64,000 nucleotides of DNA, taken from a virus. Position numbers and translations under genes: made by a program. The stretch is taken from the UHGV virus genome UHGV-1352889. One strand, written 5' to 3'. Positions 9,602-62,647 of the stretch are shown here, one piece after another (positions within the stretch are counted from its first letter, which is position 1; each line of letters begins with the position of its first letter). The notes beneath the pieces were generated by a model that ran no database searches, was not told the DNA's origin, and saw only the letters and a list, made by a program, of their open reading frames with translations.

Positions 9602-9853
9602 ATGGAAATGACTAGCGAACAGAAGAAATATCGTAAACTTGTACGGAAAATTATTCGGACAATCTGTAAGAATTTAGTGAAGAAAGCTAGCGAGTATAAC
9701 ACAGTCCCTTTGAGGATGGAGTATGTTACCTTATTGGAGTTTGTACTTATGCCTCCTTCAGATTGTCACAAGATAGTAGAGAAAGAACTTGACAATCTCA
9801 TTAGTGAAGGTATTATTCCAGTCAGAAAGGAAGACGACAATGGAGATAGGTAA
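9602..9853 (+). CDS. hypothetical protein (83 aa)
   Basis: Start chosen at the ATG at 9602 inside ORF 9545..9853, to avoid overlapping the previous gene. Confidence 0.4.
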   Translation: MEMTSEQKKYRKLVRKIIRTICKNLVKKASEYNTVPLRMEYVTLLEFVLMPPSDCHKIVEKELDNLISEGIIPVRKEDDNGDR

Positions 9854-9863
9854 TCCTAAAAAC

Positions 9864-24000: not shown

Positions 24001-24691
24001 TTGTGCTGGCAATGGATTTGGCCACCGCCTTTGCGTTACGGTTTCTGTCCGCGGCAATGGCGAGGAACTTTTCCGTTACGACGGGGTTCCCGTCCTCTCC
24101 CATGCCGAAGCCAAAGCGGGATAAGAATGCGGGTTGCTGGGGAGAAAGTTCGGAGGAAGAGACTGCGACGATGCCCGTGTTATTCGTAAGCTTTTTAATG
24201 GCGTCACTATCACCACGAGCGGCGGCCTTCAAATCAACCCGCGCATCTTCTCCGCTGTCTAGGTAGTTCTTTATGTAGTCGATTCCCTCAAAGGTGAACC
24301 CACGGTTTCCTTTGTTCAAGACATCAACGTCAGCCTTTTCCGCGGCGGTTTTCCATTGTTGTTCCGTATGGGCGCGGGTTTTTGTTTCCCATTCTACGTT
24401 ACGTGCGCGGTCTGCCTGTTCAATCTGTTTCTTCTGAAAGTCCTCAATGGACTTAGAGACATAGTCATCAAACTCCGCGGTAGCTCCTGCGGCTTTCTCC
24501 GCGTGGGTCTGTTTCTTTTCCGCTAACCTTTGCTCGCGGTCTAGTGCTTTCTGTGCTCTGTCTTCCTGTTTCTGTTTTTGCGTCTCTTGCCACGTGGCGT
24601 GCCTTTCTGCGGCTCGCTGTTCACGCGCGATACTGCTTGCCGACGTCGGAGCGAAGTCGGACATATTGGCGGTACTAAAGTCAATGGCCAT
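15047..24691 (-). CDS. giant virion protein (3214 aa) with HExxH zincin-like motif; function unknown
   Basis: One uninterrupted 9.6-kb ORF sits in the structural gene train. VLHEAIHLIDRH is encoded near 20155-20184, with a Glu 23 aa downstream. Charged coiled-coil regions and T/E/P/S-rich linkers are present. Confidence 0.7.
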   Translation of the reverse strand: MAIDFSTANMSDFAPTSASSIAREQRAAERHATWQETQKQKQEDRAQKALDREQRLAEKKQTHAEKAAGATAEFDDYVSKSIEDFQKKQIEQADRARNVEWETKTRAHTEQQWKTAAEKADVDVLNKGNRGFTFEGIDYIKNYLDSGEDARVDLKAAARGDSDAIKKLTNNTGIVAVSSSELSPQQPAFLSRFGFGMGEDGNPVVTEKFLAIAADRNRNAKAVAKSIASTMEKARKDYLNSHLDYSGKPKAEAIESAPIAYTAEEIESIINTIRREDIDNYRAAKSLYNKHRAASTENVQKKTPSQTNVGELGVGEFSDSAPSFTGNVFAELANLSKSPSKMFRLVRDYGDYLSRNGDIYIPRHQTSKKEKPVEDRIREQIEAADKMVRRLEEDYTGLPYLELRDAILNPEAAASTLLSLVPNADMDAIRARAKVLAKDLRRKKDRPLTFETDEQIGMSEAILEAVATRFPGVPKSILYQAGVTNLIQGYVAKATPRGTLMDAVKGAMANYRSTGGQIADVLTLQPGDSVGKTSDPLSTMEWRKGTRRGTWEYGVLGGPSFDVGPERLKEYMAQYHIENTRDALNSLSHAARMGDLGVGRGSLFAYNPHTKEVDTNATLELNPNALYDNKLMDKSIEALRASGADEGLINRTIEKFQNLRTKSAQELVKDNIALDETLGTLHDTWLGFGMRVYPIWTESMKYLDKYLSFKNFYNEQKEAGKSDEDILSAWQEKGQAHINPILRGFQIGTHKAIDLGTGAAYGALLFAQNAVGSRAAMEHTRTLWDQLNKKQEAEAELVRGNILADYTAEIANLGYQMVATAGAGKIGGLAGRALERTALTKFARATANVVAKRAEALVPAARPGLAGRLSGTIQRNLNNLAALSLERAGAGAGVNLTIISQVAPNAYSDIFYTIYDREMEGKEPTAENTNRAQSIASRRALFGAALVSAGSTLINNRAGVDSYMRKIVGAKNLRGQSPFQTLEQKMARWRSKPWSEMTTKEKTLSVASYLYSTSKAAVEGATEELADEFQEWAFTELVKNGEISESSIATTDQVISGAIKIAFLGGIGGYVGSQLAGEGNIRFQTEAVPTLDVKDATSMLPDITKDASNIIEETGKAITKNNVPESLVETGKKVIEIAGEKGDAAEVAREWVDKSIAHESLVVSDETRKAWVEGATRMGISNFTQFRNLVERASEIYTYEGSAAASSFMAEAINDLPNTLSFPNKENLDTMRTMLSEALDAMGDRVQVIEVDDDLSILTTGDEDLDAAINVINGLTEAAATKESPVPTEPTATTESPELTARKERDQAIASVTNMVDTGVVTPEAVETVDTLDAAITSFDPNTGAWLSSGSPLDRGTKLVSLNEMTGINAPLVTSNTGETIVVSPHASMYNMGEGGTPSTKWGDRVSALNLPSDGTGVNAYGILSDLRVKASPAQAAAIDGVLRALHAAGLDVAIRATNAPANIASPASITYMNGTDGKLVGGVIDLYMDRDNAIESVTGTVLHEAIHLIDRHLRATNADYSQRMDKIRSAVAENYNQFIDSLTAMYEASVDINEMNAIAALASDLNYGLRGPDEFASVAFSNPVMNFMIAEVSGDNVTLTDLARYAEAAGGRRPVHVRLIEWLKDLIRDVRQTADDMDGTTAAKNAAEWDSYVDRVADITPGKWFDMPRTPSWKVDDTDYTMSHEVDYFNPLAYETDMTQRLSFGLGAEIIGTNAGNWVTSVKNVWQGVSKGWDKAGINVKSEEQKLIVLEQRTNVNAAYERSIKRIDKIGDMLQRRADSLGWDAATRKKWSKSILDMSGNMDNDIDPETVARINAEAQAEVRQHEQTRDFRIALAKKTVTDAVNRHAEAVRLANSLALNSEGRLEINDMMRRIKDMSVKGYGAMLDKTVALPMLSQQIHKSLSDLGSRISATGDANLETSYFSLARDTQNYLADMINEVDSPFSMDELLDRWSNLRNDYLYAESTNHPAIAPMIQDISRARAEAKQIIREANDDFYAATKRAGVTRAGVTTPAGSVWLKRDNAILDARRQKQAEYMAKRDAAEQWLLSQGVVGQLVYNVIADSRKEIAATQISIAKLIGDSRMANNAAEMNYLHRTYMAVGRHAGDFTRTMKDIIAHPNGEMAQKYDGLTKLLQEAAIAHAEAHQTELSENISQVLDNMQALAAFHDELKLPLVSAPPGASSNYKLLFEGVAKNYRTREILDFIQNNFGRVQMLADLRDGHNISAMYNKAMSMIAQADYRTKSKMAEMKETLDMKARDSFLADVFSSLPGNTIADKIGGLESPASVASEVNKAIPTIPTSAIDQIWNAPNMNAAERLDKTLNLLRGQAGILMRANNMGNVISATDLKVLQYPELSRLAVSDAMKAIDEVLTKKRTNEDALAQRKRLPEWQRKAMYELSDLTIGDAIGTLQNTISMQSKIAVNQLLADEYATVLKAQGVVVPATSTNRTPDMVEISLKNTKNALNGLYADKDVADAIYHIYRPSDDIMNSRTDDYKKVRKYWQKSGKGQGWGSKAGSLANLSVLIASPNSTLRNLYGTVAQMTHAGALPFTGSKDIANLVGDWLQLRKLRRLSKGKDLGSQASADRLLAAEDRYNEKIRYWQELGLLDAGQGEFLRNVWKSDEFSKMAGEFEEVNEDSFFKLAEALNEKQERTKGEVAKDAAKMAGKVVAWPIKTMAFAYGLPDAAAKIVLFTNQRAIADTQLKVQLARAKGKANPNARDQILLDASQTDQSWNAYVDRYTAHMVKSLLPTGSRTPSWVKILNIVMAPFFMFQYHTAQSVVYNLGHAIGEGVDGVWAINNGMKKEGAYLLGRAILRAAGSVGTISATSAVSSLFARQIITSVLGDDDDRKIIDDAEVMRKLADSGLIPDYDKFGDLIGIIDMKRHEFEYLNLEYMNPFKTIKVLAKTLPSLFMDMDVDKWGMNKVAELKNLLENTVLEESLLLNAASELFNEEDFNYKHSLSGDESVNVLPAVGNAILLAAGLNPSFGSGHTWQALERVATVANKKIPFYGWAVKTGKQFASDTPDMSTAAYLLQTFGAGLRRPKDLTEALAAGLKNANAAVTKSKRMSILRPDFYKRMESGMDVELMEAVETADAVKNFTKLVNSVRFVTEITNMLDPSIRSEVLDSVIESSGMSAKTYGAAMQGIMPYVISPQAGREAIAKLNRELQKSNTTDEGKRLIEEQKQLIINLMQKGSIPIDGALSTEEIHNRMK

Positions 24692-26672: not shown

Positions 26673-29564
26673 TTAACTGGGTGGATAAATGGTTACTTTC
26701 TTGCACATCATGCCCCCGTTCCACGGGGATGCGTAATAGGAGGTCACGGGTTTCCAATCTGTGTGGGCAGTCCCCGGAAAGTTTGTATTAAACCCGCCGG
26801 GAAGCCACTTGGCGTCCTGACTGCCAATGGTTACGGATATAGTCAACGGGCCGTGGAGGCATGCGGGCAGACGGTAATCGCAAAGCGGCGAAGAGAAATA
26901 CCCACTGTTCGTCGTGAATTGTACCGACGTCCCAAGACCCCAGCCTTTAGGCCATGTACCATCAGGGGAGAAGGCTTCCTCTACCACGGCGGTGCAGGGG
27001 CCGGAGTAACTGTCCCTCAACATCTTGGTCTGCGGGAAGTACTTGCCTTCCTGTCTGCCAGAGCGGTCGGGCCTCGTATCCCACGGAATCCACTGAACCG
27101 AACCGAACACGGCGGGGAAACTGTAGTTCATCGTCGTGGTATATTTTTTGTAGTACCCGATTCCCGGAATCTGCATGTAACTATCTACGGCGTAACAGGG
27201 GTTCACCCACTGGCGCAGGATGACGCGTTGAATCTTGTCGCCCGTCGTGACCTTGAACGTATTGCCTCGGAGCTGACATATAGTGATTCCGAACTGGAAG
27301 TACGGGAACTTCGCCCCATCATAGGTCAGGGTAATCTTCTCGGCAACCTCGGCATTAAGGATATAGTCCCCAACACGGTATTTAGTCTTCGCGCCGTAGG
27401 ATGTATTGACCGTAGGTTCCGGCTGGTTAGGCAGTCCTACATTGCTAGTCGTGACTACCTTGATATCAAAGACCTTTGTCCCGTTGAGGAAGATAGGGAT
27501 AACTCCATTGATGACGCCGCAGTAGGGGTTAGAGACATGTACGGTCATGTTCAGCTGGCCGTTCTCCACGTCAAAATATACGTTGCCAATACCGTTAGGC
27601 AGTGTACCTATGGTGAATCTCATCTCTGGGTTATATCCATCGTCTCGCTTGTAAATGGCCGCAGTATCCGAGACACCCAGCGGGAACACCCACGGAGCAC
27701 TCGTTACATCCTCCGCATAGAGGGTATCCCGGATAATCGCCTCCATCCTAATCTTGTACCATCCGTTCTGTGTCATCCACGGACCATCGGGGTTAGGGGC
27801 GTTGTAAAAATAATCTGCTTTCATCGTGCCTGGGGACTGAACTCTGGGATAGCTGTTCTGGATATATATGTTCCACCAGCGGACCCCCTTAAACCGGATG
27901 CCCACATTCATGCCACGGTCAGCATCTTGGTTGTCCATACTAAACGAGCCGAGTAATGCGAAAGTATTCGCGAACTGGGGATAATTGGGGTCGTTCCATC
28001 CATTGATGAGGGACATGTTTTGGAGCATACCCGTTGCTGGGGATGAATCCTCAACCGCAGTAAAGTCAGAAAGGTTATATCCGATTCTGGTCCACGGCGT
28101 GTCGGGGATAGTAATGGCTACCTCGGTTTCCGGGGTTTCCAGCTTCCGGGCATAGTAGGCATTACCCACGGCATCCGTGTATTTGGTGAATCCTTCCCTC
28201 TGCCAGTCTGTGTCGAAGTCAGTGCTCGGATTGGGCACAATCTTCCGCAGTACCGGATAAACTTGGTTCGTAATTCGGTCAAAGGAGGATTCCCAGAACT
28301 CGTCAATCTGGTCGTAGGTGGTGCAACTCTTTCGCGTTTCCTTGTGGCTATATCCCTCACGGACTACTACAGAGGAATCGACGCGCCATTGGCTACAGTT
28401 TTCACTGGGGTCCGGGGGGTCAATCGCAGGGACGTCGCCATTCGCCGTCCAGTCAACAGACTGGCTAGTCGTCACGGTCGTATTGATGCACCGGACAAAA
28501 CGGGAATCCGGGTTGCAACAATTGCCGGAGAGGGTGTTCTGTTCCTCCTTTTCCGCGATGCCGCTGTTCCGTTTGTACATGGATACGAGGGTGTACATTT
28601 GCGTACTCGGATAACTGCCCTTGTCCCAGCCCGCACTAACGGGCCTATTGTCCAGTTCAAGCGTGGGCATGTGGGGAATGCGGGCCTGTCCCGGTTCCTT
28701 CCCTCCACCATCGACGGGCCAAAGCGGCGCGGCCCATACCTCTCTCGATAACTTAATTGCAGTCTGTGCCACCCATTCAGATTCGGGCAGGGCCGTTCCC
28801 GGACCCCCTTCATCCCACACCGTATCTCCCTTCCGCCAAATGTTATAAGGGATGAACTCTTTAACCACCGGGCCGGGCAGGGTCTTGTACACGCGTACCA
28901 CCTTACGAAAATACTTTCGCAGGTGTTCTTCTCCAAACTGGACTACTTCTTCAAATACCAGCTGGGCATCGTAGGCCGTGTAGAAGTGCTGGTCATAGAA
29001 GTCAGGGTCAAGCTTTTCGTTGCTGGGGTCAAACGAGCCAAGGGGAAGCGGGGCATACGCGGAATCCAAGGGTTCCACCCACTCCCGTGTAATCTCGTAA
29101 AAGTCTTTCAGCTCGTCGGTGTCTGCATCGGGTCCCATGAACTTACCCGTAGCGGCAGTATCCTTTAAGGTATAGCCGTCACGAATCTTCTTCATGTCCT
29201 GAATGTTATACCGGAACTGCTGTTCCGGCGGGACCATGTAGTAGAAACGATAAACGTGCTGTCTCGCCGCCTCGTTGACGGGTTCGACATGCACAAGAAC
29301 TGCATCCCGCATGAACGGAAGGAAGGTCGTACCCGCAGTAGGTACGAACGGTGTTCCCAATTCAATGGTAATCTCGCTGGGATTCTTGGCAATCCTCTCA
29401 ACGAAGAACATCACGTTTTTTACCACCGGAGTGGGAAAGTTAATTATCGGCTCACCCATTGGCCTGTCAGGACTGAACCCATTGCGCCACGAGGAATCCG
29501 TGGTTCCAATGGGTATTGTCGGAGGCTGTGGAGTGGAGGCCGTGGTATTAGGAATTAAGGCCAT
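26673..29564 (-). CDS. large structural protein (963 aa), tail-associated candidate
   Basis: Long ORF in the operon. The antisense ORF 26652..27956 is judged a shadow ORF. Confidence 0.5.
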   Translation of the reverse strand: MALIPNTTASTPQPPTIPIGTTDSSWRNGFSPDRPMGEPIINFPTPVVKNVMFFVERIAKNPSEITIELGTPFVPTAGTTFLPFMRDAVLVHVEPVNEAARQHVYRFYYMVPPEQQFRYNIQDMKKIRDGYTLKDTAATGKFMGPDADTDELKDFYEITREWVEPLDSAYAPLPLGSFDPSNEKLDPDFYDQHFYTAYDAQLVFEEVVQFGEEHLRKYFRKVVRVYKTLPGPVVKEFIPYNIWRKGDTVWDEGGPGTALPESEWVAQTAIKLSREVWAAPLWPVDGGGKEPGQARIPHMPTLELDNRPVSAGWDKGSYPSTQMYTLVSMYKRNSGIAEKEEQNTLSGNCCNPDSRFVRCINTTVTTSQSVDWTANGDVPAIDPPDPSENCSQWRVDSSVVVREGYSHKETRKSCTTYDQIDEFWESSFDRITNQVYPVLRKIVPNPSTDFDTDWQREGFTKYTDAVGNAYYARKLETPETEVAITIPDTPWTRIGYNLSDFTAVEDSSPATGMLQNMSLINGWNDPNYPQFANTFALLGSFSMDNQDADRGMNVGIRFKGVRWWNIYIQNSYPRVQSPGTMKADYFYNAPNPDGPWMTQNGWYKIRMEAIIRDTLYAEDVTSAPWVFPLGVSDTAAIYKRDDGYNPEMRFTIGTLPNGIGNVYFDVENGQLNMTVHVSNPYCGVINGVIPIFLNGTKVFDIKVVTTSNVGLPNQPEPTVNTSYGAKTKYRVGDYILNAEVAEKITLTYDGAKFPYFQFGITICQLRGNTFKVTTGDKIQRVILRQWVNPCYAVDSYMQIPGIGYYKKYTTTMNYSFPAVFGSVQWIPWDTRPDRSGRQEGKYFPQTKMLRDSYSGPCTAVVEEAFSPDGTWPKGWGLGTSVQFTTNSGYFSSPLCDYRLPACLHGPLTISVTIGSQDAKWLPGGFNTNFPGTAHTDWKPVTSYYASPWNGGMMCKKVTIYPPS

Positions 29565-41609: not shown

Positions 41610-42002
41610 TCATCCTTTTGTGAAGAAGTTAAAGAAGGATAGTGTACCGCTATCGGTGAGTACGAACTGGGGATATTGGTCAGGGGTAAATATTTTTGTA
41701 CCCCCGGAATCCCCGGTAGCCTCGACAGTCAGAAGGACTGCGGGCACCTTGTCCGTCGGGCTGGAAGGAGATGGAACCTCTCCCAATCGTGCCCAAACTT
41801 GGCACGCTTGCCACTGTTCGTCAAGAGCGGCAATGGCCTCGATAGCCCCCGCGAGGGTGGGTATCTGCTCCTTCGGCAACGTGGTCTCACTGTACTGGTC
41901 AAGGTGCGTAAAGCCCAGTGCGTCCGCGTAGATTACACTCATAATGAGCTTGGTCCAGTCGCCGGGCTGTGGGAATTGAATTTGTATTTCTGCGTTGTTC
42001 AT
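41610..42002 (-). CDS. hypothetical protein (130 aa)
   Basis: ORF. Confidence 0.5.
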   Translation of the reverse strand: MNNAEIQIQFPQPGDWTKLIMSVIYADALGFTHLDQYSETTLPKEQIPTLAGAIEAIAALDEQWQACQVWARLGEVPSPSSPTDKVPAVLLTVEATGDSGGTKIFTPDQYPQFVLTDSGTLSFFNFFTKG

Positions 42003-44146
42003 GCCTGTTCAAGGGGGATGTTAATATCTTCGAAATCCGTGGCTTCCTCGGATTCAATGGCATCGACGGCCATTGCTTCCAGTCCATAAAAGACCGGGTT
42101 CGTGCCTCCCGGCTGGTAATAGGTGTGCTCTCCGTCGCCTGCATAAACAGAAATGTTGCCAGTCGAATTATTCACCACATCAGTTACCCAGCTGATAATG
42201 CCGGAGTTTGTCTCAAAAGTGGAGACGCCGCGGCATGTGGCAATTTTATACAGATTATTCGCCTGACCTCCGGTGAGCATGAGCCAGAGTGCACCTAGAT
42301 TATCATACTGGGCAATATTGGCCGAAGCGTTCTGCTGGTAAATAACCTTGGCAATCGTCCAAGGGATGGGTTCGTTTTGACTGGCCGGGATGAAGCTGGT
42401 GGTGGTTTTCACCTGCCAGCCCGCCGTGGAATTGAGCGCGTAAATCTCACGCACCCGCACCGTATAACCGTTACGCTGGGTATCTCTGACGTTGTCAAAG
42501 GTAATATCCAGAATTTCGCCCTGATTGTACGCCAAATCGTTTGCCGGGATAATACTGTAAGAATCTATGGAAAGGTCGGAACGAACCGTCTTCGCGCCAC
42601 GGCCAATACCAAAGGTCAACTTTGCCGCACCAGTAGCACGCCAAACGAAAGAGAACCCTGCGAAACTGGAATAATTCCAGCGGGCATTAACTCCCACAAA
42701 GTCTGCCTGAATAGTCGAATGAGTTCCCGGTGGAACCTTAATAGTAGCTATATGGTATGGGACTGTTTGTGTCACCGTCGAAGTCCCTGTCTTGGTAATG
42801 GTCGTCGTATTGAGGAAAGCATTAGTGGTCAGGATGTTCGCCTCGCTAGCCAATCCCAACGCATAAAAGCGATTAACCGCCCCCGTATTCGTCGGTGCAC
42901 CCACGGCCAACGGGATGTTGATGCCGCTGTTGGCATTGGGGGTTTTGGTGAACGTCAGAACACCGCCCACGGAAATGGTGCCGTACATACGGGTTTGGGA
43001 GTTGAACGTAACTACCCCGTTATGGTTTTCATTTTTGTAGACCCACAAGTCCCCAGACGTATCGATGGTCAATGTCTTATTGTTGACGTTATTGGGGTCA
43101 GTTATGGAGAGGAAACCGTCGGATTCTTCGTAAAGTATGGCTCGCGTAGGACCGCTCTCCTTGCCGAAGAGGATGCACTTCATCTTCTCGCCAGTGGTGG
43201 CAACGAAGCTAATGCCGTCATCAAAAGTGGTGGGGTTTTGGAACTTGACAGGAATCGCAACGTCCATGTGGGAAGCGTCCGTCCCCTCAATGACTGCGGC
43301 TCCGCTACCATCGCCGTGGATTTTCACCGCGTCATCCCCTTGTCCGAGAACTAAAGGAACTTCGTTTCCGAGAACTAATCCCGCCGTGTTGGTGAAACTC
43401 CATGCCCCGGAGATTGTCTGGTCACTAGCTGGGTCAAAGCCAGTGCCAGAACCGCCACCCTCACCGGAGCCTAACCTAAAATTTCTGATGGAGACGAAGT
43501 AGCCCGCTTCTTCAATCGTACTACCGAGAGAAAGAATTGCAGAAGTTTCAGTTGCCACAAAGACCAGCTGGTCAGTAGTCTTACCGCCAGCGAGGAATGC
43601 CTTAGGATTGTTGTCGGCTCCTACGCTAAAGAGCGCATAGCTGAATTCCGGATTAGGCTTCGTTTCCATCAAGCCGCCCAAGTCAGGATGCACATTGATA
43701 GAGTAGAGCTTACCGCTTTCGAGGTTGGAGATTTTGTAGAAACCTTCGGAGACAGGGCCATCACCGTCCAGCGGAAGGGCCTGATACTCTTGGTCGTAGT
43801 CGAACCCCAACGGGTGAAGAGCAATCGTCGCGTGTGCACTTTCGACGGAGGCGTTCTTGTCCTGCGCGTTAGTGGGGACGACGAAGTACTTACCGTTGGG
43901 AGATGCAATCTCAATCACCTGTCCCGCGACCGAACCATTGATGATGAACTGTTCCGGCGTAATGTTGGACCACAGTTCGTCAGTAGGAGCGGTAGCGGAA
44001 AGCTTGAAGAGACAGGGAGAACTGGAAGCAAGAAGCCACGCGGTGTGCGTGTCGGCATCGCCCAGCTTATAGGTTACGCCCGGCGTAATAGGAGAACCGT
44101 TGACGTAGTTTTCAATATTGATTTTAGAAGAACGTTTACGTGCCAT
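41999..44146 (-). CDS. tail fibre / receptor-binding-like protein (715 aa)
   Basis: Large protein following head genes, with a Gly-rich linker GSGEGGGSGTG. Assignment is by size and position only. Confidence 0.35.
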   Translation of the reverse strand: MARKRSSKINIENYVNGSPITPGVTYKLGDADTHTAWLLASSSPCLFKLSATAPTDELWSNITPEQFIINGSVAGQVIEIASPNGKYFVVPTNAQDKNASVESAHATIALHPLGFDYDQEYQALPLDGDGPVSEGFYKISNLESGKLYSINVHPDLGGLMETKPNPEFSYALFSVGADNNPKAFLAGGKTTDQLVFVATETSAILSLGSTIEEAGYFVSIRNFRLGSGEGGGSGTGFDPASDQTISGAWSFTNTAGLVLGNEVPLVLGQGDDAVKIHGDGSGAAVIEGTDASHMDVAIPVKFQNPTTFDDGISFVATTGEKMKCILFGKESGPTRAILYEESDGFLSITDPNNVNNKTLTIDTSGDLWVYKNENHNGVVTFNSQTRMYGTISVGGVLTFTKTPNANSGINIPLAVGAPTNTGAVNRFYALGLASEANILTTNAFLNTTTITKTGTSTVTQTVPYHIATIKVPPGTHSTIQADFVGVNARWNYSSFAGFSFVWRATGAAKLTFGIGRGAKTVRSDLSIDSYSIIPANDLAYNQGEILDITFDNVRDTQRNGYTVRVREIYALNSTAGWQVKTTTSFIPASQNEPIPWTIAKVIYQQNASANIAQYDNLGALWLMLTGGQANNLYKIATCRGVSTFETNSGIISWVTDVVNNSTGNISVYAGDGEHTYYQPGGTNPVFYGLEAMAVDAIESEEATDFEDINIPLEQA

Positions 44147-48250: not shown

Positions 48251-48568
48251 TTACTTGTTTGGTGAAAGTGAGTTAATCCAAGCGTTACGCTCGGTCATGG
48301 GATGATTCATCATAGTTACCGGGGATTCGGTTTCTTCATTCTCTTCGGCCAGATTGAAGAGAGCGGCGATAACGGATTTAGCCCCAGCCGCGAAAGCTCC
48401 ATTCAATGCGGCGGCTTCCATTGTGGGCTGTAATGTCGCATTGAGTTTTGACTGAACAATGCAGAGAGCTTCTTCCATTACCGGGTCATGCAGGAGTTCA
48501 GCAAGGCGGCCAGTCGCCGCCTTGTTGCTTTTGAACCCTTCGACAGTGTAGGTAGGAACTGCCTTCAT
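48251..48568 (-). CDS. hypothetical head-associated protein (105 aa)
   Basis: ORF. Confidence 0.45.
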   Translation of the reverse strand: MKAVPTYTVEGFKSNKAATGRLAELLHDPVMEEALCIVQSKLNATLQPTMEAAALNGAFAAGAKSVIAALFNLAEENEETESPVTMMNHPMTERNAWINSLSPNK

Positions 48569-50835
48569 CGTGCACCTCCCAGCGATTGAGCCGCTTTAGC
48601 GTTAGCTTCTACGGCGTTACGAGTAATCTCGGCATCCTGCTTTTCCTTAGCCAACTGGATTTCAGCTTCCGTCTTCATGCGCTTCAATTCAATTTCGGCT
48701 TCGGCTTTCATCTGTTCAGGAGTAGGTCCTTCTTGGGGAGCCGCTTCTTCGTTCTGTTGCATCGCTTCCAAGGCCCGCATGCCGTTGGTAATAACCTCGT
48801 TGCACCTCTTGACCAGTTTCTCGTACTGTTCAAATTCGGGGACAACTTCCTTGGCGGCCTGCAAATAGTCCATGTGTCCTGCCAACTGGGCGACCAGAAG
48901 CTGTAGAGGTTGAGCTAGCTGGGCCATCTCTTCGGGTTCCAGCTGTGCGTCCGGTAGCATGGACATGATGAAGTTGGCATGCACTTCCGCGTGCGTCCTG
49001 TGGTCCTCGTTCGGCATAACCGGAACTTCCTGACCTGCCATGAGCTGGTTGTTCTGGATGGATGCGATAGAGGCGGCCACGGTTTCGGACGGGTTGGGGT
49101 CATCCTTCAACGGCATGAACAACTGCGCGGTGCGTCCATTCGTTTCATTGGCAATGGCCATGCGGATGAGACGTTCCTGCCCAGCGCGGGGCATGAACTG
49201 CATGTAGTTGAGACACTGACGGAGAGCCATTGTACGGCGAACCTTACTGCCCGCACCGATAGGGGGAAGAGCGGTAACGCTGTCAAGGTCGATAGCGAAG
49301 AAGGCATCCCTTGGCACACCTGCTTCGTCCAGACGTTGGAGCATGCGTTCACGTTCCTTAAACCCGCCAATCCCTTCATCGTAGTCCTTGCGGATGATAC
49401 GGCGAACGATTTCACGGAGAAGGATGGTCATGTGCTCCAAGAGCATATCCATGATGTTATTGCTGACCTTGCTCGCATTACCCATACGGATTTCAGCTTC
49501 CAGCTGGGTGCGGCCCATGCCTCCATCAGCATTCACGTCAATCTCGCCCAAGCGTTCCCGGATTTGGTTCTGCAAGAATGCGAGGGGAGTTCCGGCAACT
49601 TGTTGCAGATTCGGCACGGGATTAGGAACCACTTGCGTTGACGGGTCCAAAATGGTATAGGCCCCCATCGGGTTCACCATTGCGGAGAGACGGGAGGTTT
49701 CATTGGTGGCAGAGACGTTCAGAGCCATGCCGAGGAACGCCGCGTCCGTCGCTTGGTTCATCAACTTGTCAATGACACGAGTGTGAGGCAGAAGGTCATT
49801 GCCATATCCGCGAAGGGCATGAATATCTCCATTGGTGCTACTGCCCAGCGGGAAGAGAATGAAGGCTTCTTCCATAGAGTTGTAGGCTCCTTCCTTGGTG
49901 TAGAGGAACTTGGTGTCATCTACATCGCGGTTCTGGTCACGCTTCACATCCTGACCATTGCCGCCGCTTCCGTTGACGAAGAAAATGGAATGAGTAACCG
50001 TACCGTTGAATTCGCGTACCCACATGTGGGCAATCGGAATACTGGTTCCAATTACGTCGGTCAGGGTGTAGTCTCCGTTTTTGAGCATCTTCTCGGTCTC
50101 CCAAGAAATGCGCTGGGGCTGTACTGTCTGATTGTAACTACAGGTCTTCAACACCTTCATGACCTCTTCCACATCCCAGCCAGCTTCCCTTGCGGTCTGC
50201 GGGTCACGAATGAAATCGTAGAGTTCATGGGCACGAAGGGTACGAGTAGCAAACACAACCTCAAGGGTGCTACTGTCCGGCTTAACCTTTCGCTCGAAGG
50301 CAAACTCGTTCAGACTACCCGCCTTGAAGTACCAAGTGTCAGGGTCCTCAAAGTAGGCAAGGCCGAAGCCGTGGAAGGAGAAGTTGTGAAGAAGGTCTGT
50401 CATGATGGAAGTGAATCCCGGCATGGACTTGACCATCTTCGTCACCTCGGTGGAAAGGATGTCTGAATAAATGGGGCGACGAGCATTATCTCCGAAGGTG
50501 GTTTGCACCGAAACAAGTTCGGGGTTATCCCACACTTCACGGAGGCTGGCCGCCACCTTTTCACGAACAATCCGCATCGTGCGGAAGTTGTAGTTGGTTC
50601 GATAATTCTGACCAACTGCGGAAAGGGCCATTGGGTCATACGGGCGTTGTCCGTCCAGCTCTGCCTGTGCCTCTGTCCTCGCTTGCATGGATAGCTGGTC
50701 AGCGGTGAGGCAGAAGTAGAGCAAGGCGCGGGCTTGGTCAGCGGTCGGAACCCTTCGCTTGAGAAGAGTTCCGTTCTCGTCAACCACGCCAATAACCCCC
50801 GGACCTACGGGAGCATTTGCGTCTGGTTTCGGCAT
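48565..50835 (-). CDS. putative portal protein (756 aa)
   Basis: Size and position between the terminase and scaffold/capsid genes. A C-terminal coiled-coil and acidic tail are present. Assignment is by synteny only. Confidence 0.5.
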   Translation of the reverse strand: MPKPDANAPVGPGVIGVVDENGTLLKRRVPTADQARALLYFCLTADQLSMQARTEAQAELDGQRPYDPMALSAVGQNYRTNYNFRTMRIVREKVAASLREVWDNPELVSVQTTFGDNARRPIYSDILSTEVTKMVKSMPGFTSIMTDLLHNFSFHGFGLAYFEDPDTWYFKAGSLNEFAFERKVKPDSSTLEVVFATRTLRAHELYDFIRDPQTAREAGWDVEEVMKVLKTCSYNQTVQPQRISWETEKMLKNGDYTLTDVIGTSIPIAHMWVREFNGTVTHSIFFVNGSGGNGQDVKRDQNRDVDDTKFLYTKEGAYNSMEEAFILFPLGSSTNGDIHALRGYGNDLLPHTRVIDKLMNQATDAAFLGMALNVSATNETSRLSAMVNPMGAYTILDPSTQVVPNPVPNLQQVAGTPLAFLQNQIRERLGEIDVNADGGMGRTQLEAEIRMGNASKVSNNIMDMLLEHMTILLREIVRRIIRKDYDEGIGGFKERERMLQRLDEAGVPRDAFFAIDLDSVTALPPIGAGSKVRRTMALRQCLNYMQFMPRAGQERLIRMAIANETNGRTAQLFMPLKDDPNPSETVAASIASIQNNQLMAGQEVPVMPNEDHRTHAEVHANFIMSMLPDAQLEPEEMAQLAQPLQLLVAQLAGHMDYLQAAKEVVPEFEQYEKLVKRCNEVITNGMRALEAMQQNEEAAPQEGPTPEQMKAEAEIELKRMKTEAEIQLAKEKQDAEITRNAVEANAKAAQSLGGAR

Positions 50836-57041: not shown

Positions 57042-58256
57042 TTATTTGATTTTGAGCAAAGCCATCGCGCTCGTCACTTCTTTCACTACTCCAAGTTCTT
57101 GAAGCTCTTCGAGTAAGGATTCCTTGGCTTCTTTCATCTCGGCACGTGTGGCTCCTTCAACTTTGTTTTTATCTACCACCATGTCAAGAAGCTTCGACAC
57201 AGGGAGGCGGGAGATGCTGTCCAGAATTTCCTCTGGGGAAATGTACTGCTCGACGTAGGCACGGAAGGCATCGTTGTCCACCTTTACGGTATTACCTCGC
57301 CGTGCATACTTCCATCCGGGAACATCAACGCCGCAAGCGAAGAGGGTCTTGGCATAGTCCTTATGCACCTTGTTGGCCTCCGCGATAATGTTCGCAAAGG
57401 AAAGAAGGGAGCCAAGGGTTTCCGGGTTGTCCATCGCCGTACCGACGCTATCAATCATCCCTTCGGCTAGGTCCTTGTCCTTCAACACTTTGAGCGAGAA
57501 GTTACGGGCCATGCTAGTCACCTTCTTACACCGGGCGAGACGGGAACAGTAGGGGCAGACGTGCGGAGAGGATGAGTAAGCGTAGGGGTTCTCCGCGTCA
57601 CGGCAATGGCGGGCAATGACTGCGGACATGTTTCCCCTTGCGGTAGCCTCGTCCATAGGGACTGCGGACATGTCGGTGGTGAACTTCGGCCCCTTACCGT
57701 CGCGGTAGAACGCCGCAATCTTCATGCTTTCGGTCTGGCTGGGTTGTACCACCGCGAGGATAATGCGCTTACATTCAGGGCGTTCTGCCATTTCCAGCAA
57801 ACCATAGTAGATGAACTGGGTATTCTCGGCAGGGTCAGAGACAGGGACCATCCCCATTTTGTAGTCGATAATCATGGAAGTATCACCATGCCGGACAAGA
57901 ACGTCAGCCGTTCCGGTTTGTGCTTCGTCGTCTGGGTTGAAGACGATTCCTTCAAACTTGTGTTCCGGGAGTACTTCTACCTTGTCCGTTTGTACCTCGG
58001 TTGCGAAGATGGACATGAGCCTATCCACCATGTTGGATGCCGCAGTGTAGAGGATGTGCTCATGCTTGGTAAGAAGGGATTCTGGGTTCTTGGTTTCGAG
58101 GGCCGCGTGAACACGGGTCCCAATGGCCGCCGGGGAGAAGTCATCCTCTTCTTCCTCTTTAGTCATGGGGCGTGGGACATATCCGGGACAGGTGGCGAGC
58201 AATGCCATCTTACTCGGACTGTACTTGCTGTGAGTGTTGGTTTCGTTATAGGCCAT
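57042..58256 (-). CDS. PD-(D/E)XK nuclease with C-terminal Cys cluster (Cas4/RecB-like, DUF2800-type)
   Basis: The D...IIDYKMG (D/E-x-K) core and CPYCSRLARC Cys cluster are present. It lies next to the polymerase and helicase. Confidence 0.55.
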   Translation of the reverse strand: MAYNETNTHSKYSPSKMALLATCPGYVPRPMTKEEEEDDFSPAAIGTRVHAALETKNPESLLTKHEHILYTAASNMVDRLMSIFATEVQTDKVEVLPEHKFEGIVFNPDDEAQTGTADVLVRHGDTSMIIDYKMGMVPVSDPAENTQFIYYGLLEMAERPECKRIILAVVQPSQTESMKIAAFYRDGKGPKFTTDMSAVPMDEATARGNMSAVIARHCRDAENPYAYSSSPHVCPYCSRLARCKKVTSMARNFSLKVLKDKDLAEGMIDSVGTAMDNPETLGSLLSFANIIAEANKVHKDYAKTLFACGVDVPGWKYARRGNTVKVDNDAFRAYVEQYISPEEILDSISRLPVSKLLDMVVDKNKVEGATRAEMKEAKESLLEELQELGVVKEVTSAMALLKIK

Positions 58257-60672
58257 TTGATGTTAATGCGTTAAAACAAATTTCTTTAATATTGAGTGAT
58301 TGTATGATTCGTTCTTCCACTGTACCAGAGGCAGTCACAATGTACTGCAAGGTGTGTGACTTAGCACCAAGACGGGCAATGCGTCCTTGTGCCTGAACCA
58401 GATTAACCAGTGAAAAATCTAAGTTAATGAGAGATGCTCTAGGGTTACTTCCTGTCGTATCGTGAAGTGAAACTCCTGCGCCCCCTGCACTGATTTGTAC
58501 TAAGGCTAATCTATTAGTATTGTTTTGGAATTTAGTTATTTCATTGTCTCGGTCATTCCCTGTAACTCGTCCACTTATCTCGGAGTAAGAGATGTCCTTA
58601 CCTGCTTCTTCGTTGATTAAGTTGCTTAGACTGTCTAGACTGTCTATGAACGCAAGGAAAATCACTACGCTATAGCCACTGTCTAAAAGTTCTACTGCTT
58701 TTTTAGAGAGGGCAGGAAGCTTAGCCAGTTCCGATTGCTGACGAAGCCGCAGGAGTTCCACGATAGCGGGAAGTTCGGTTCCCTTCTCGTTAGCCCGTTC
58801 GATGGACTGGTCCCATGATTTGTCCAGCTTGTCAAGTGCTTTCTGTAATTGTTTAATCTCTCTCATACCTTTCATGTCCACGTCCACGGACAGATATTCG
58901 ATTCTATTCTCTGGGAAGAAAGTGTCAAGCTTTTCCTTGTCAATCTCTGTCATAACCCCCGCAGTGTAGAGCTTTTGTTTCAGGCTCTCCATCATGGCGT
59001 GGTTACGTGGGTTGAGCTTGAACTCAATGCCTCCCCAGAAACAGTCGGTGCATCCGTGCATGCGTGCCCAGAGCCAGAACCCGCGCCGGGGGTCTTGAAT
59101 CCACTTGGCATACGTCGCGGGGACGCTCATGTCGAGAGGGGAGATAAAAGGTGTGGCAGAGAGCATAATCGTCGGAAGTCCTTGATGAGCCGCGGTTAAT
59201 GCCATTATGTTGCTCTGACTTCCATAGGTCTTGGCCTTGTGGCTTTCATCGAAAATGAGTAATGAGTTGTTAGGAAGATTCCATGTACCAAAAACAACAC
59301 GAGACTTAGGAATCTTTGTGGGGCGTTTGTAGTAGGGAGTACCGCCTCTGCGCACCTTCTCCCATGAGAGGACTTCTATATATTCTACTCCTTGTTGTTC
59401 GAAGGCTCGCTTCCATTGGGTCACGACGATGGCGGGACAGACTACTAACGGCTTGAGATTTAATGTGCTCGACGTTTCTATTGCGCATAAAGTATTGTGA
59501 GTAATTGTAAAATCTCCGAGCAAGCAATGCGGTTCTTCCTTTAGAGTGAATCCGAAGTACTCTCCTTTTCCTATAGGCTCTAGCTTAAAACTATCTCCCA
59601 CTCGCCCCATAGTTTCTCCCTGCCAAGCCTTCTGGGGAATTTGTTTTCTCTTTAGTCTTGTGGGGATTATATGGATAGGACCAGTTATAAGTATCAAGTA
59701 GCATTGCGACTTGGCATGGCCGTTCTGATGCCCCGCTTGCATTGAAGTTTTCAGGCCCAAGGAATTTGCTAAAAATTGAACTCCTTTCAGTATATCTTCA
59801 TTAGTATTACTAAATTGTAATACGTGTTTAGGAGCATAGTAACAACCATCTGTATCAATTAACCCTGCTAAAAGTTGGAGACGGTCTTCTCGACTTGCTG
59901 TTAAATAATTATGAAGGATTGTCTTATATGGAGTATCTCCTTGACATACTCTCCTAATTACTCGGTAGGGGGTTTCCGCATCTTCTTTGCCTTTAATGAT
60001 ATGCCATTGAGCACATTGAGTGGACACGCCGTTGAAGTACGGTCCCGTTAATTTCCACCCCTCCTTACGGCAAGTTTCCTCCACTGCCTCTTTAATTTCA
60101 TGGTCATTGACGTTAATTGATATTTTAGCTCCATACTCTCGGACGGAGGTCCCATCTCCCAAATAAGCTCCTACGAAATAAGGGTCCAACGGCAGTTCCT
60201 TTTCTTCAAAATCTACCGAAGCTGTCACGAGCCTTGCACGCTTCCTCAAAGTAGGGGCTATGGCCATAAACTCTGAAATTGTGTAGTCATGAAGTTTTCC
60301 CTGCACATTTCGCCAAAAAGGTCGTAAAGAAGGTTCTGCGGGACTTACCGCAAATTGAACCGTGAGAATATGAGAGGCATTACAGGTCCAAGGCTTACCA
60401 CGTCTGGGAATGACTTTGTACATTTCTTCCTCCCCGTGAGCTAAACTGGTAATTGTTCGAGGCTTGGAATCAGGTCCCATTAACTGGTCCCCTACTTTCA
60501 AGGTTTCTACCGGAACTATGGTTCCATCATATTTGAGCATAGGGGTCCCCTTCCCCCAGCATTTACCACATCCTGTGGCACTTGTGTTAATAGTATAGCC
60601 TTGAGTTTTAATGGCTTCTACCATCTCGTTTATACATTGTTGTTGCGGAGGGAAGGGAACTAGAGGTTTCAT
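58246..60672 (-). CDS. SF2 helicase (DExH) interrupted by an intein
   Basis: Exteins carry Walker A GCGK|T (restored across the intein), DESH motif II, LSATP motif III and QAQGRIARLG motif VI. The extein is 452 aa and the intein 356 aa. Confidence 0.8.
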   Translation of the reverse strand: MKPLVPFPPQQQCINEMVEAIKTQGYTINTSATGCGKCWGKGTPMLKYDGTIVPVETLKVGDQLMGPDSKPRTITSLAHGEEEMYKVIPRRGKPWTCNASHILTVQFAVSPAEPSLRPFWRNVQGKLHDYTISEFMAIAPTLRKRARLVTASVDFEEKELPLDPYFVGAYLGDGTSVREYGAKISINVNDHEIKEAVEETCRKEGWKLTGPYFNGVSTQCAQWHIIKGKEDAETPYRVIRRVCQGDTPYKTILHNYLTASREDRLQLLAGLIDTDGCYYAPKHVLQFSNTNEDILKGVQFLANSLGLKTSMQAGHQNGHAKSQCYLILITGPIHIIPTRLKRKQIPQKAWQGETMGRVGDSFKLEPIGKGEYFGFTLKEEPHCLLGDFTITHNTLCAIETSSTLNLKPLVVCPAIVVTQWKRAFEQQGVEYIEVLSWEKVRRGGTPYYKRPTKIPKSRVVFGTWNLPNNSLLIFDESHKAKTYGSQSNIMALTAAHQGLPTIMLSATPFISPLDMSVPATYAKWIQDPRRGFWLWARMHGCTDCFWGGIEFKLNPRNHAMMESLKQKLYTAGVMTEIDKEKLDTFFPENRIEYLSVDVDMKGMREIKQLQKALDKLDKSWDQSIERANEKGTELPAIVELLRLRQQSELAKLPALSKKAVELLDSGYSVVIFLAFIDSLDSLSNLINEEAGKDISYSEISGRVTGNDRDNEITKFQNNTNRLALVQISAGGAGVSLHDTTGSNPRASLINLDFSLVNLVQAQGRIARLGAKSHTLQYIVTASGTVEERIIQSLNIKEICFNALTSNGL
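59494..60561 (-). mobile_element. intein with double-motif LAGLIDADG homing endonuclease, inserted in the helicase P-loop
   Basis: It starts at Cys38 (CWGKGTPMLKYDG) and has block B NASHILT. The LAGLIDADG motifs are FVGAYLGDGTS and LLAGLIDTDGCYY. Block F EPHCLLGDF and block G THN are followed by Thr. Codon checks were done at 60559-60561 (TGC) and 60562-60570 (K, G, C). Confidence 0.85.
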
Positions 60673-60727
60673 GTGTTTGAAATTTGTGATAGGTTTACTA
60701 TAGTAATTCTCTAGTAAATGTCAATCA

Positions 60728-62647
60728 TTATTTTCTGTACTTGTCCATGATTTCAGGTTCGGCAAGGAGCGGAAGGGATGAAGCCCACTGCGGAGTTTCT
60801 TCCATTATCTGTTCGATGCGCTGGGCGTATTCCTCGGCATGGTCAGCCGGAACCATCACTACGGCTTCGTCATGCACGAGAAGGATAGGTTGCGCACCCT
60901 CTAATTCCTTGCACAGGCGGTTGAACGTGCGGACCATGAGGTCACGTGCGATTGACTGGATGTTATTGTTGCTAAGGAGGTTAGTATTGACGATGGAGGA
61001 CTTGTACCCGAAATCGACGCAGGTTGCGAAATAGGGACGACGACCGTCCTTGGGTTGAATGAGTTTCTTGTAACAGTTACGATAATAGAGCTTCCGGCCA
61101 GAGGGAAGGGAGAGCGCGAAGCTATGGGAGGGGGTACGATAGCCGCGAGCCGCTAATGCGTCCAACTCTCTCCACCATGCTACCACTTCTGGGCTACGAC
61201 TGCGGTACATGTCCACAATCGCTTGGCACTGGTCCCTGTCCATTCCGGGGTTCGAGCGTTGAATAGCCTTCCATCCAGCACTAAAGCCGCAAGCAAGTAC
61301 CCCCGCCTTCACATGCTGACGAAGGTCCGCTTGCCCCGGAGTTTCCTTGCAGTACTGTTTGAAGTCCTTGACATCCGCGGGGATGAGGCCCCAACCTTTC
61401 GCGTTAGCGGCATAGATGTCCTTCTCACCAGCACGGAGGGTATCAAGAATTTTCTCCTGCCCGCAGAGCCAAGCGGTCAGACGTGCTTCAATCCCAGCCC
61501 AGTCACATACCACGAGCTTATACCCTTCGGGTGCTTGAATGGCGTTGCGCTGGTTAAAGCCCAGAACGTCTTCACGGTTAAGCTGTTGCAGGTTGAGCTT
61601 ATCTCCCCCGGCAGTCCAACGGCCCGTACTTGCGCCACAATAGGTCAGGGTGTAGGGGAGACGTTCTATCCCTTCATGGTCAGTATAGACGCGGGAAAGC
61701 ATACGCTCGGTAATGCTAATCATGCGGTTCACGCTCCTGTACTTCCCGATAAGAGTTACCCACGGAACGAGGTGGCCATACTCTTCCAGCCAGTCCGTAA
61801 AATCTTCGCTGGACTTGCTGGTGGTTGTGGGGGGCGGGATGTTCAGTTCCTCGCACGCTCTACGTAGTTGGGGAATGGAGAGTTTCTTTTCAAGCGGGAT
61901 AGCTTCCTTGTATTCCTCCTGCGCCTGATGGAGTTTCTCCAATCCGTCAAGAAGATACTGGCGGGAAGTAGGAACTCCGCGCCATCCCATGATGCAGGTA
62001 TTGAGCCAACAGGCGCGTTCATCTTCCGGCCAGAAGTTCTTCATCTTGTCCCACAAGGCGAGACAGTAGTAACTATCGCCCGCCACGTATTCCTTCATGT
62101 CGTCGGGGATGACTTCCATCTTGCGGAAGTCAACACCTTCGGCTTTGGCTCGGACTTCCTTGCTAATCTCTACACCCCAAAGCTTTGCGACAATCTTGTC
62201 AAGAGAGCCATAGATGGCGAGATAGTTGGAAGCGGCGCGGGAACAGAGCCATGCCTTGAAGGGCGGCTGGAAGCTTGGCGTGCACGGGATGCCCTTGGAC
62301 CCCGGCGCGTGAAGACCGAAGAGGTAAACGGCATAGTCGAAGCTGGCGTTAAACGCGACGAGGGTTTTGTCCTTCGTAGTTTTCTCCCAGTCAAAATCCT
62401 TCGGATGTCCTACCCAGCAATACTTCCCGTCATAGACGGACATGATGTATGCGTCGAACCGCGGGTCCCTACAATAGGAATGCGGGTCCATGAACTTGAG
62501 GGAATATTTCCCCTCATAATACGTTTCAAAGTCAACGGCAAGAGTATCGCCTGTGAGTTTGGTCTGGTCGTCTGTAATCTCCATTTCATACCCCGGAATG
62601 CGAGGCAGTGAAAATGATATAGGGTTCTTATCTATTTCTTCGTGCAT
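60728..62647 (-). CDS. family A DNA polymerase
   Basis: Motif A DWAGIEAR (DxxxxEhR) and motif C LLVHDEAVV are present. Length is 639 aa. Confidence 0.8.
   Translation of the reverse strand: MHEEIDKNPISFSLPRIPGYEMEITDDQTKLTGDTLAVDFETYYEGKYSLKFMDPHSYCRDPRFDAYIMSVYDGKYCWVGHPKDFDWEKTTKDKTLVAFNASFDYAVYLFGLHAPGSKGIPCTPSFQPPFKAWLCSRAASNYLAIYGSLDKIVAKLWGVEISKEVRAKAEGVDFRKMEVIPDDMKEYVAGDSYYCLALWDKMKNFWPEDERACWLNTCIMGWRGVPTSRQYLLDGLEKLHQAQEEYKEAIPLEKKLSIPQLRRACEELNIPPPTTTSKSSEDFTDWLEEYGHLVPWVTLIGKYRSVNRMISITERMLSRVYTDHEGIERLPYTLTYCGASTGRWTAGGDKLNLQQLNREDVLGFNQRNAIQAPEGYKLVVCDWAGIEARLTAWLCGQEKILDTLRAGEKDIYAANAKGWGLIPADVKDFKQYCKETPGQADLRQHVKAGVLACGFSAGWKAIQRSNPGMDRDQCQAIVDMYRSRSPEVVAWWRELDALAARGYRTPSHSFALSLPSGRKLYYRNCYKKLIQPKDGRRPYFATCVDFGYKSSIVNTNLLSNNNIQSIARDLMVRTFNRLCKELEGAQPILLVHDEAVVMVPADHAEEYAQRIEQIMEETPQWASSLPLLAEPEIMDKYRK

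Follow-up and report, generated by a model that had tools for sequence, protein, structure and literature searches.

A predicted PI-SceI-type intein in the Walker A motif of an SNF2-like ATPase encoded by an uncultured phage

Is the long segment that interrupts the ATP-binding loop of a helicase-like phage protein a part of that protein, or is it an intein that is spliced out and may still be mobile? The question is raised by a gene found in 64 000 nucleotides of the virus genome UHGV-1352889, a stretch referred to here as the window. The minus strand at 58246..60672 encodes an 808-aa open reading frame (ORF) of 90.4 kDa, made up of N-extein, intein and C-extein, and the translated pieces of this precursor read ...SATGCGK37|C38WGKGTPMLKYDG...GDFTITHN393|T394LCAIET. 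The predicted intein comprises precursor residues 38-393 (59494..60561, minus strand) and splits the Walker A motif between Lys and Thr (TGCGK|T), while removal of aa 38-393 restores TGCGKT and leaves a 452-aa product. In our reading, to which we give a probability of roughly 0.9, the insert is a full-length class-1 intein with a PI-SceI-type LAGLIDADG homing endonuclease, placed at GK|T of Walker A. The motifs quoted in a first-pass annotation of this DNA (NASH, two LAGLIDADG motifs, EPHCLLGDF and a terminal HN followed by Thr) were all found, and its coordinates proved exact. The gene is organised as follows, with the evidence for each feature in brackets.

60562..60672, minus strand: N-extein, aa 1-37, ending in helicase motif I ...SATGCGK (translation, homologue alignment)
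59494..60561, minus strand: predicted intein, 356 aa, 40.1 kDa, PI-SceI-like, a Hint splicing domain with an inserted LAGLIDADG endonuclease (Pfam, PDB phmmer, AlphaFold2, Foldseek)
60559..60561, minus strand: codon of Cys1, the block A nucleophile (PI-SceI alignment, translation)
60370..60381, minus strand: block B N-A-S-H, intein N61...H64 (family alignment, translation)
59662..60204, minus strand: homing-endonuclease core, intein aa 120-300 (model secondary structure, Foldseek, Pfam Hom_end and LAGLIDADG_3)
60151..60183, minus strand: LAGLIDADG motif 1, PYFVGAYLGDG, including Asp136 (PI-SceI alignment, translation)
59923-59925, minus strand: codon of the conserved Lys213 (family alignment)
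59845..59880, minus strand: LAGLIDADG motif 2, LQLLAGLIDTDG, including Asp238 (PI-SceI and family alignments, translation)
59494..59499, minus strand: block G His355-Asn356, the C-terminal splice junction (PI-SceI and family alignments, translation)
59491-59493, minus strand: codon of Thr+1 (Thr394), which completes GCGKT (translation)
58246..59493, minus strand: C-extein, aa 394-808 and stop codon, with DESH, SATP, QAQGRIARLG and Helicase_C (translation, Pfam, PDB)

Identity of the insert and of its host protein

The first-pass annotation had proposed a search with Hint and LAGLIDADG profiles, and this gave matches above the curated Pfam cut-offs, with Hom_end_hint (PF05203) on aa 38-106 (E 1.7e-14, 54.8 bits, cut-off 32.1) and both Hom_end (29.7, cut-off 21.1) and LAGLIDADG_3 (29.8, cut-off 22.5) on aa 264-331. 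A phmmer search against all PDB sequences returned PI-SceI, the yeast VMA1 intein, as the top match (E 2.4e-14), through alignments that span residues 1-53 and 226-356 of the query and finish exactly at the terminal HN. An AlphaFold model computed from the intein sequence alone was unusable (predicted local distance difference test, pLDDT, 34) and was replaced by an AlphaFold2 model built on a 34-sequence alignment of relatives, which reached a pLDDT of 90.4 and a predicted template modelling score (pTM) of 0.90. When this model was compared with the PDB using Foldseek, PI-SceI structures came first (E 3.8e-27 to ~1e-23; query-normalised template modelling, TM, scores of 0.78-0.81), followed by the TliVMA intein, PI-PfuI, Prp8 mini-inteins and the free-standing LAGLIDADG enzyme I-DmoI; I-Tsp061I was also hit. 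The endonuclease core is predicted by the model to be pseudo-dimeric, with the order alpha-beta-beta-alpha-beta-beta-alpha, in which helices 127-136 and 224-238 are each followed by beta-hairpins.

The individual residues agree with this assignment. Cys occupies intein position 1 in 28/33 aligned family members and aligns with Cys1 of PI-SceI, and the N and H of block B are kept in nearly all members of the family, the N-A-S-H of the window being of the same type as the N-A-T-H of PI-SceI. Asp136 (YLGD136G) and Asp238 (IDTD238G) align with the two catalytic Asp of PI-SceI; in PI-SceI numbering we take block B to be N76-A-T-H79 and the catalytic residues to be Asp218 and Asp326. The class-1 splicing residues (Cys1, N61/H64, H355, N356 and Thr+1) and the LAGLIDADG catalytic residues (D136, D238 and K213) are thus all there, and both sets are conserved across the 33 family members. 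From these residues we infer that the intein would both splice and cleave DNA. Splicing would proceed from a translated 90-kDa precursor through an N-S acyl shift by Cys38 (Cys1), transfer of the thioester to the hydroxyl of Thr394 (+1), cyclisation of Asn393 with the assistance of His392, and an O-N shift, which would release a 452-aa (50 kDa) ATPase with an intact GCGKT loop together with a free 40-kDa endonuclease.

The predicted spliced protein carries the SF2 helicase motifs I (SATGCGKT), II (DESH, Walker B, aa 475-478 of the precursor, within 59239-59262), III (SAT) and VI (QAQGRIARLG), and it matches Pfam Helicase_C at 37.9 bits (cut-off 23.5). Its best PDB match is the SNF2/Rad54-like 1z63 (E 2.4e-11), in the C-terminal lobe only, and the nearest solved structures are the Sulfolobus SNF2/Rad54 core and eukaryotic chromatin remodellers, again over that lobe only. 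SNF2-rel_dom (PF00176) scored 12.5 bits, under its cut-off of 24.9, and ResIII and DEAD also fell under theirs; some distant homologues match PF13871, of the Strawberry-notch type. The gene lies between a family-A DNA polymerase gene (polA) and a gene for a Cas4-like PD-(D/E)XK exonuclease. Judged by these motifs and matches, the host protein is an SNF2/Rad54-like DExH ATPase that belongs with the phage's replication and recombination genes. Enzymes of the SNF2 type mostly act as translocases. A 956-aa VapE/D5-like primase-helicase is encoded on the same scaffold beyond the end of the window (L008 1622-4492), ~1.5 kb upstream of polA, and is the likelier replicative helicase of the two. Since this enzyme is encoded nearby and the host protein is SNF2-like, the label of replicative helicase given in the first-pass annotation is unjustified. 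The gene would be better annotated as an intein-containing SNF2-like ATPase with a mature product of 452 aa than as an 808-aa helicase.

Intein-less relatives and the empty allele

The predicted spliced 452-aa sequence was used as the query in a search of 5.8 billion proteins. Five close homologues (P0001-P0005; 451-454 aa, 66-80% identical) were recovered with an uninterrupted TGTGKT, along with 12 further, more distant homologues of the spliced sequence, none of which has an insert. Where the window reads SATGCGK-(356 aa)-TL, the intein-less relatives read S(C/A/T)TGTGKTL. Because homologues of 451-454 aa have an intact TGTGKT, the insert is not a native domain, and these same homologues bear out both the insertion point and the 452-aa spliced product that had been proposed; an equivalent native domain was sought in the close homologues and they were found to be without it.

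An empty allele, also anticipated by the first-pass annotation, was found in a related phage. Contig L001 has the same gene order as the window but no intein, and the genes on either side are 93-96% identical (polA 93.4%, the downstream PD-(D/E)XK exonuclease 95.7%). The presence or absence of the intein is a polymorphism within one phage species. The window and the intein-bearing contigs L011 and L012, set against the empty L001, with flanking genes 93-97% identical, thus make up a natural study system.

An unbroken reading frame is the one point in favour of the idea that the 356-aa segment stays in the protein, whether as an accessory domain native to this helicase or as an error of assembly or annotation. 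We consider this next to impossible, and it is refuted by the intein-less homologues, by L001 and by independent contigs. The five close homologues and L001 are without exactly this segment; the segment splits the P-loop and is PI-SceI-like from end to end; and the insert is not an assembly artefact because the identical 808-aa protein is encoded on five independent contigs and the 90% cluster has seven members.

The exact start of the intein was also considered. Cys35 aligns with Cys1 of TG|C-type inteins (see below) and was a candidate for the true first residue, but was rejected, as a start there would delete the Gly-Lys of the P-loop. Cys38 is taken as the start because splicing at this residue gives the motif and length of the relatives exactly.

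An internal ATG (Met45, intein residue 8) with a Shine-Dalgarno-like GGGGAAGGGGA upstream lies within the precursor gene (window 60538-60560, minus strand). In two cluster members, P0066 and P0067 (763 aa), the gene callers placed the start at this ATG. N-terminal pseudogenisation was considered for these calls and rejected, for in L011 the sequence ahead of this ATG is unbroken and keeps the frame, and the shorter call is therefore the gene caller's choice of start site.

Flanking tracts, selection and the mode of entry

The features in which the DNA around the intein differs from that of the empty allele are given below with the comparisons that define them.

59243..60730, minus strand: putative imported tract 1, comprising the spacer, N-extein, intein and ~250 nt of C-extein (identity to L001, GC content at third codon positions, GC3)
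58373..58732, minus strand: putative imported tract 2, extein codons ~301-420 of the spliced product (63% identical to L001, GC3 0.36)
60673..60727, minus strand: 55-nt spacer from the polA stop codon to the helicase ATG, in intein-bearing genomes only (comparison with relatives)

Identity to L001 drops exactly at the polA stop codon and is ~62% in the N-extein; on the other side of the intein, 30-nt bins show 43-87% identity over the first ~250 nt of the C-extein before identity returns to at least 90%. The extein parts of tract 1 are ~50-75% identical to L001, as against 90-100% outside the tract. Taken over their lengths, the two helicase tracts are 67% and 63% identical to L001, whereas among the intein-bearing window, L011 and L012 they are 96-99% identical, and tract 2, at 98-99% identity among the intein-bearing contigs, is linked to the intein allele.

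Composition follows the same boundaries. The N-extein has a GC3 of 0.30, the intein 0.38, the proximal C-extein (codons 38-120) 0.46 and tract 2 0.36. The background is higher, at 0.62 for the helicase segment that lies between the tracts and 0.58-0.68 for nine other genes, and only 2.3% of segments of the same size as the intein have so low a GC content. In L001, GC3 is normal across both tracts. The low GC3 of the tracts in intein-bearing DNA and its normal value in L001 mark the tracts as foreign, and they appear to be imported from a lower-GC, unsampled lineage. The sampled lineages L002, L004 and L005 were considered as the source and rejected, being equally distant (52-63% nucleotide identity).

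The spacer has a consequence of its own. In all intein-less relatives polA and the helicase gene share a 4-nt ATGA overlap, which the spacer replaces, and no Shine-Dalgarno sequence is found ahead of the helicase ATG in the spacer; translational coupling to polA would therefore be lost in the intein allele. The spacer also holds TTGACA-16-TATAGT (60724..60697), an 11/12 match to consensus, but promoter-like hexamers of this kind are no commoner than in shuffled sequence (a scan found 4, with 4.5 expected) and no function is claimed for them.

Selection was assessed from the ratio of nonsynonymous to synonymous substitution (dN/dS) by the Nei-Gojobori method, with the window compared with L011 and L012. 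The ratio is 0.06 for the intein, 0.05-0.07 for the endonuclease domain (35-45 synonymous differences) and 0.04 for the C-extein. The values of 0.05-0.07 indicate that the endonuclease is maintained by selection, and as a compact (356-aa) enzyme of the PI-SceI type under purifying selection it is a candidate for a new rare-cutting specificity.

The best reading of these data is that the intein is, or very recently was, homing-competent, and that it probably entered with co-conversion of its flanks. The first-pass annotation had called the element probably still mobile, and the retained catalytic residues, the dN/dS of ~0.06 across the endonuclease, the foreign composition and the divergent, co-conversion-like tract are all consistent with this. 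During co-infection the endonuclease would cut copies of the gene that lack the intein, close to the codons of the P-loop, and repair off the intein-bearing copy would then copy in the intein together with flanking extein DNA (co-conversion). We infer that delivery was by such homing rather than by ordinary recombination. Potential homing targets exist, since the empty allele circulates in the same species-level population, and the sharply bounded tracts of foreign composition would allow the homing cycle, and how far co-conversion extends, to be followed in a population of uncultured phages.

Several observations nevertheless weigh against a functional intein that came in by homing. At +1, Thr is less nucleophilic than Cys or Ser, and a Pro that is nearly invariant in the family, 3 residues past the active-site Lys, is Leu here. 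Over the 60 bp around the insertion point the exteins of the window are only 30-33/60 identical to the known empty alleles. Tract 2 is not contiguous with the intein, being separated from it by ~500 nt of native-type sequence. Nor was a donor found: peptide patterns revealed no close relative of the intein in IMG/VR, JGI metagenomes or GTDB genomes, exact and degenerate DNA patterns for the spacer and N-junction had no match, and the best intein relative in the set of 5.8 billion proteins is 37% identical.

Two alternatives have to be set against homing in the light of these points. In the first, the intein is genuine, but a segment of helicase gene in which it already sat was exchanged with a diverged, lower-GC phage by ordinary homologous or mosaic recombination, and not brought in by endonuclease-driven homing. 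This rival account of the mode of entry draws on tract 2, which shares the foreign GC3 (0.36) and the linkage to the intein yet stands apart from it; the upstream boundary, too, falls exactly at a gene boundary and brings with it a spacer that every relative lacks, and phage genomes are generally mosaic. The strongest divergence, however, is centred on the intein and decays over ~250 nt on the C-extein side in the manner of a co-conversion tract, purifying selection on the endonuclease would be hard to explain without a role in spread, and patchy, discontinuous conversion tracts are known from heteroduplex repair. We thus hold ordinary recombination to be somewhat unlikely as the route of entry, while tract 2 itself could reflect either patchy co-conversion or an independent recombination.

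The second alternative concerns the endonuclease. The splicing domain might work while the endonuclease is inactive or decaying, so that the intein would be fixed and immobile, at a late stage of the homing cycle. The Pro-to-Leu difference near the active-site Lys would fit such decay, as would the failure to find a near-identical intein outside this phage species and the number of variable positions among cluster members, 17/356 in the intein against 13/452 in the extein. We nevertheless regard it as improbable, for D136, D238 and K213 are intact, dN/dS over the endonuclease domain stays at 0.05-0.07 with 35-45 synonymous changes, none of the 7 cluster members has a broken reading frame, and an empty allele is still in circulation.

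Related inteins, the N-terminal junction and the phage

As mentioned above, PI-SceI (VDE), the Saccharomyces cerevisiae VMA1 intein (PDB 1vde, 1ef0, 1lws), is the best match of the window intein in both sequence and structure. The two share Pfam Hom_end_hint and Hom_end, the unusual block B N-A-(T/S)-H, both catalytic Asp, the active-site Lys and the terminal HN, and the host of PI-SceI is likewise a P-loop nucleoside triphosphatase. In contrast, however, they are only ~22% identical, PI-SceI is 454 aa long against 356 aa here, and the segment from block B to the first LAGLIDADG helix, the DNA-recognition region in PI-SceI, is much shorter in the window intein. The +1 residue is Cys in VMA1 and Thr in the window, and the hosts are a eukaryotic V-ATPase and a phage SF2 ATPase respectively.

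Among cultured phages, Salmonella phage St162 gp3 (MF158037, 'putative intein-containing helicase') and the helicase of Bacteroides phage BS162P1 (OP172706) have inteins of the same family (~30% identity) at a GSGK|C...THN|T insertion point in an SF2 helicase adjoining a DNA polymerase. Their exteins, however, are not orthologous to those of the window and the phage backbone is unrelated; against cultured-phage proteins the spliced extein reaches only 21-30% identity.

The first-pass annotation had described the P-loop as a classic insertion site, and the literature agrees (Kelley et al. 2016, PMC5050341; Novikova et al. 2016, PMC4760082). [quoted passage not shown] Mycobacteriophage TerL1-a and other P-loop inteins have the same Lys/Thr insertion in Walker A and are likewise sporadic among close phages, but they occupy other host proteins (terminase, DnaB, RecA and others) and belong to other intein lineages (PMC5050341, PMC4760082).

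A HMMER scan of 1.84 billion cluster representatives returned 3,163 proteins at E <=1e-30, many of them helicases aligned end to end, the intein included. Five, all uncultured homologues from the same helicase family, were examined (P0070, P0072-P0074 and P0076). They align over helicase and intein with the 808-aa protein at 31-33% identity, but their related intein is inserted 3 codons upstream, as TG|C...THN|TGKT, so that their Cys1 aligns with the extein Cys35 of the window. With a related intein 3 codons upstream in the same P-loop, this helicase family has therefore been invaded at two adjacent sub-sites. DnaB, RecA and AAA_24 proteins carry relatives of the window intein too, each placed at one or other of these P-loop sub-sites. 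What is new is only the host gene lineage, that of an uncultured phage; the intein belongs to a large and well-described class, and the current understanding of inteins is unchanged by the finding.

The N-terminal junction has a further feature. The sequence C35-G-K-C38 spans it (window 60562-60570, minus strand, then Cys1) and places Cys35 at extein position -3, where Cys is found in 0/33 related inteins and where the intein-less relatives all have Thr. The Cys35 codon is kept in 3/3 intein-bearing DNA variants despite nearby synonymous changes. Splicing of the Pyrococcus abyssi MoaA intein is under the control of a native disulfide between Cys-3 and Cys1, and the Ssp DnaE intein can be trapped by an engineered one (PMC3922620, PMC10663303). 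The MoaA intein, like that of the window, has a Cys 3 residues before Cys1, giving CXXC across the N-terminal junction; its host and intein lineage differ, and the likeness is one of sequence pattern only (PMC3922620, PMC10663303). By analogy with these precedents, and with CGKC retained in all three variants yet absent from relatives, a Cys35-Cys38 disulfide could be envisaged to block the first step of splicing under oxidising conditions and to act as a redox switch on maturation of the ATPase. Such a role is very doubtful, however: this position of the P-loop tolerates many residues, so that a Cys there may mean nothing, conditions in the bacterial cytoplasm are reducing, and the three variants are too alike to show selection on a single codon. 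Were it true, the redox state of the infected cell would decide whether the ATPase matures, and a bacteriophage would have a natural switch for conditional splicing, co-imported with the intein in the co-conversion tract.

The window is part of a 69.8-kb metagenomic scaffold from an uncultured phage of ~70 kb, whose lineage is known only from metagenomes, as ENA, Logan and JGI contigs of 66-70 kb. Its polA is at most 27% identical to that of any cultured phage, and a megablast search with 8 kb found no nucleotide-level match to 50,697 cultured-phage records. No tRNA genes were found in the whole window. A 3214-aa ORF (15047-24691, minus strand) has no Pfam or PHROG match, and ORFs of 963, 756 and 715 aa (26673-29564, 48565-50835 and 41999-44146) had no match in the libraries tried. 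An NAD-dependent DNA ligase with adenylation, OB-fold and BRCT domains is encoded at 9789-11834 on the plus strand, opposite to the structural and replication genes examined.

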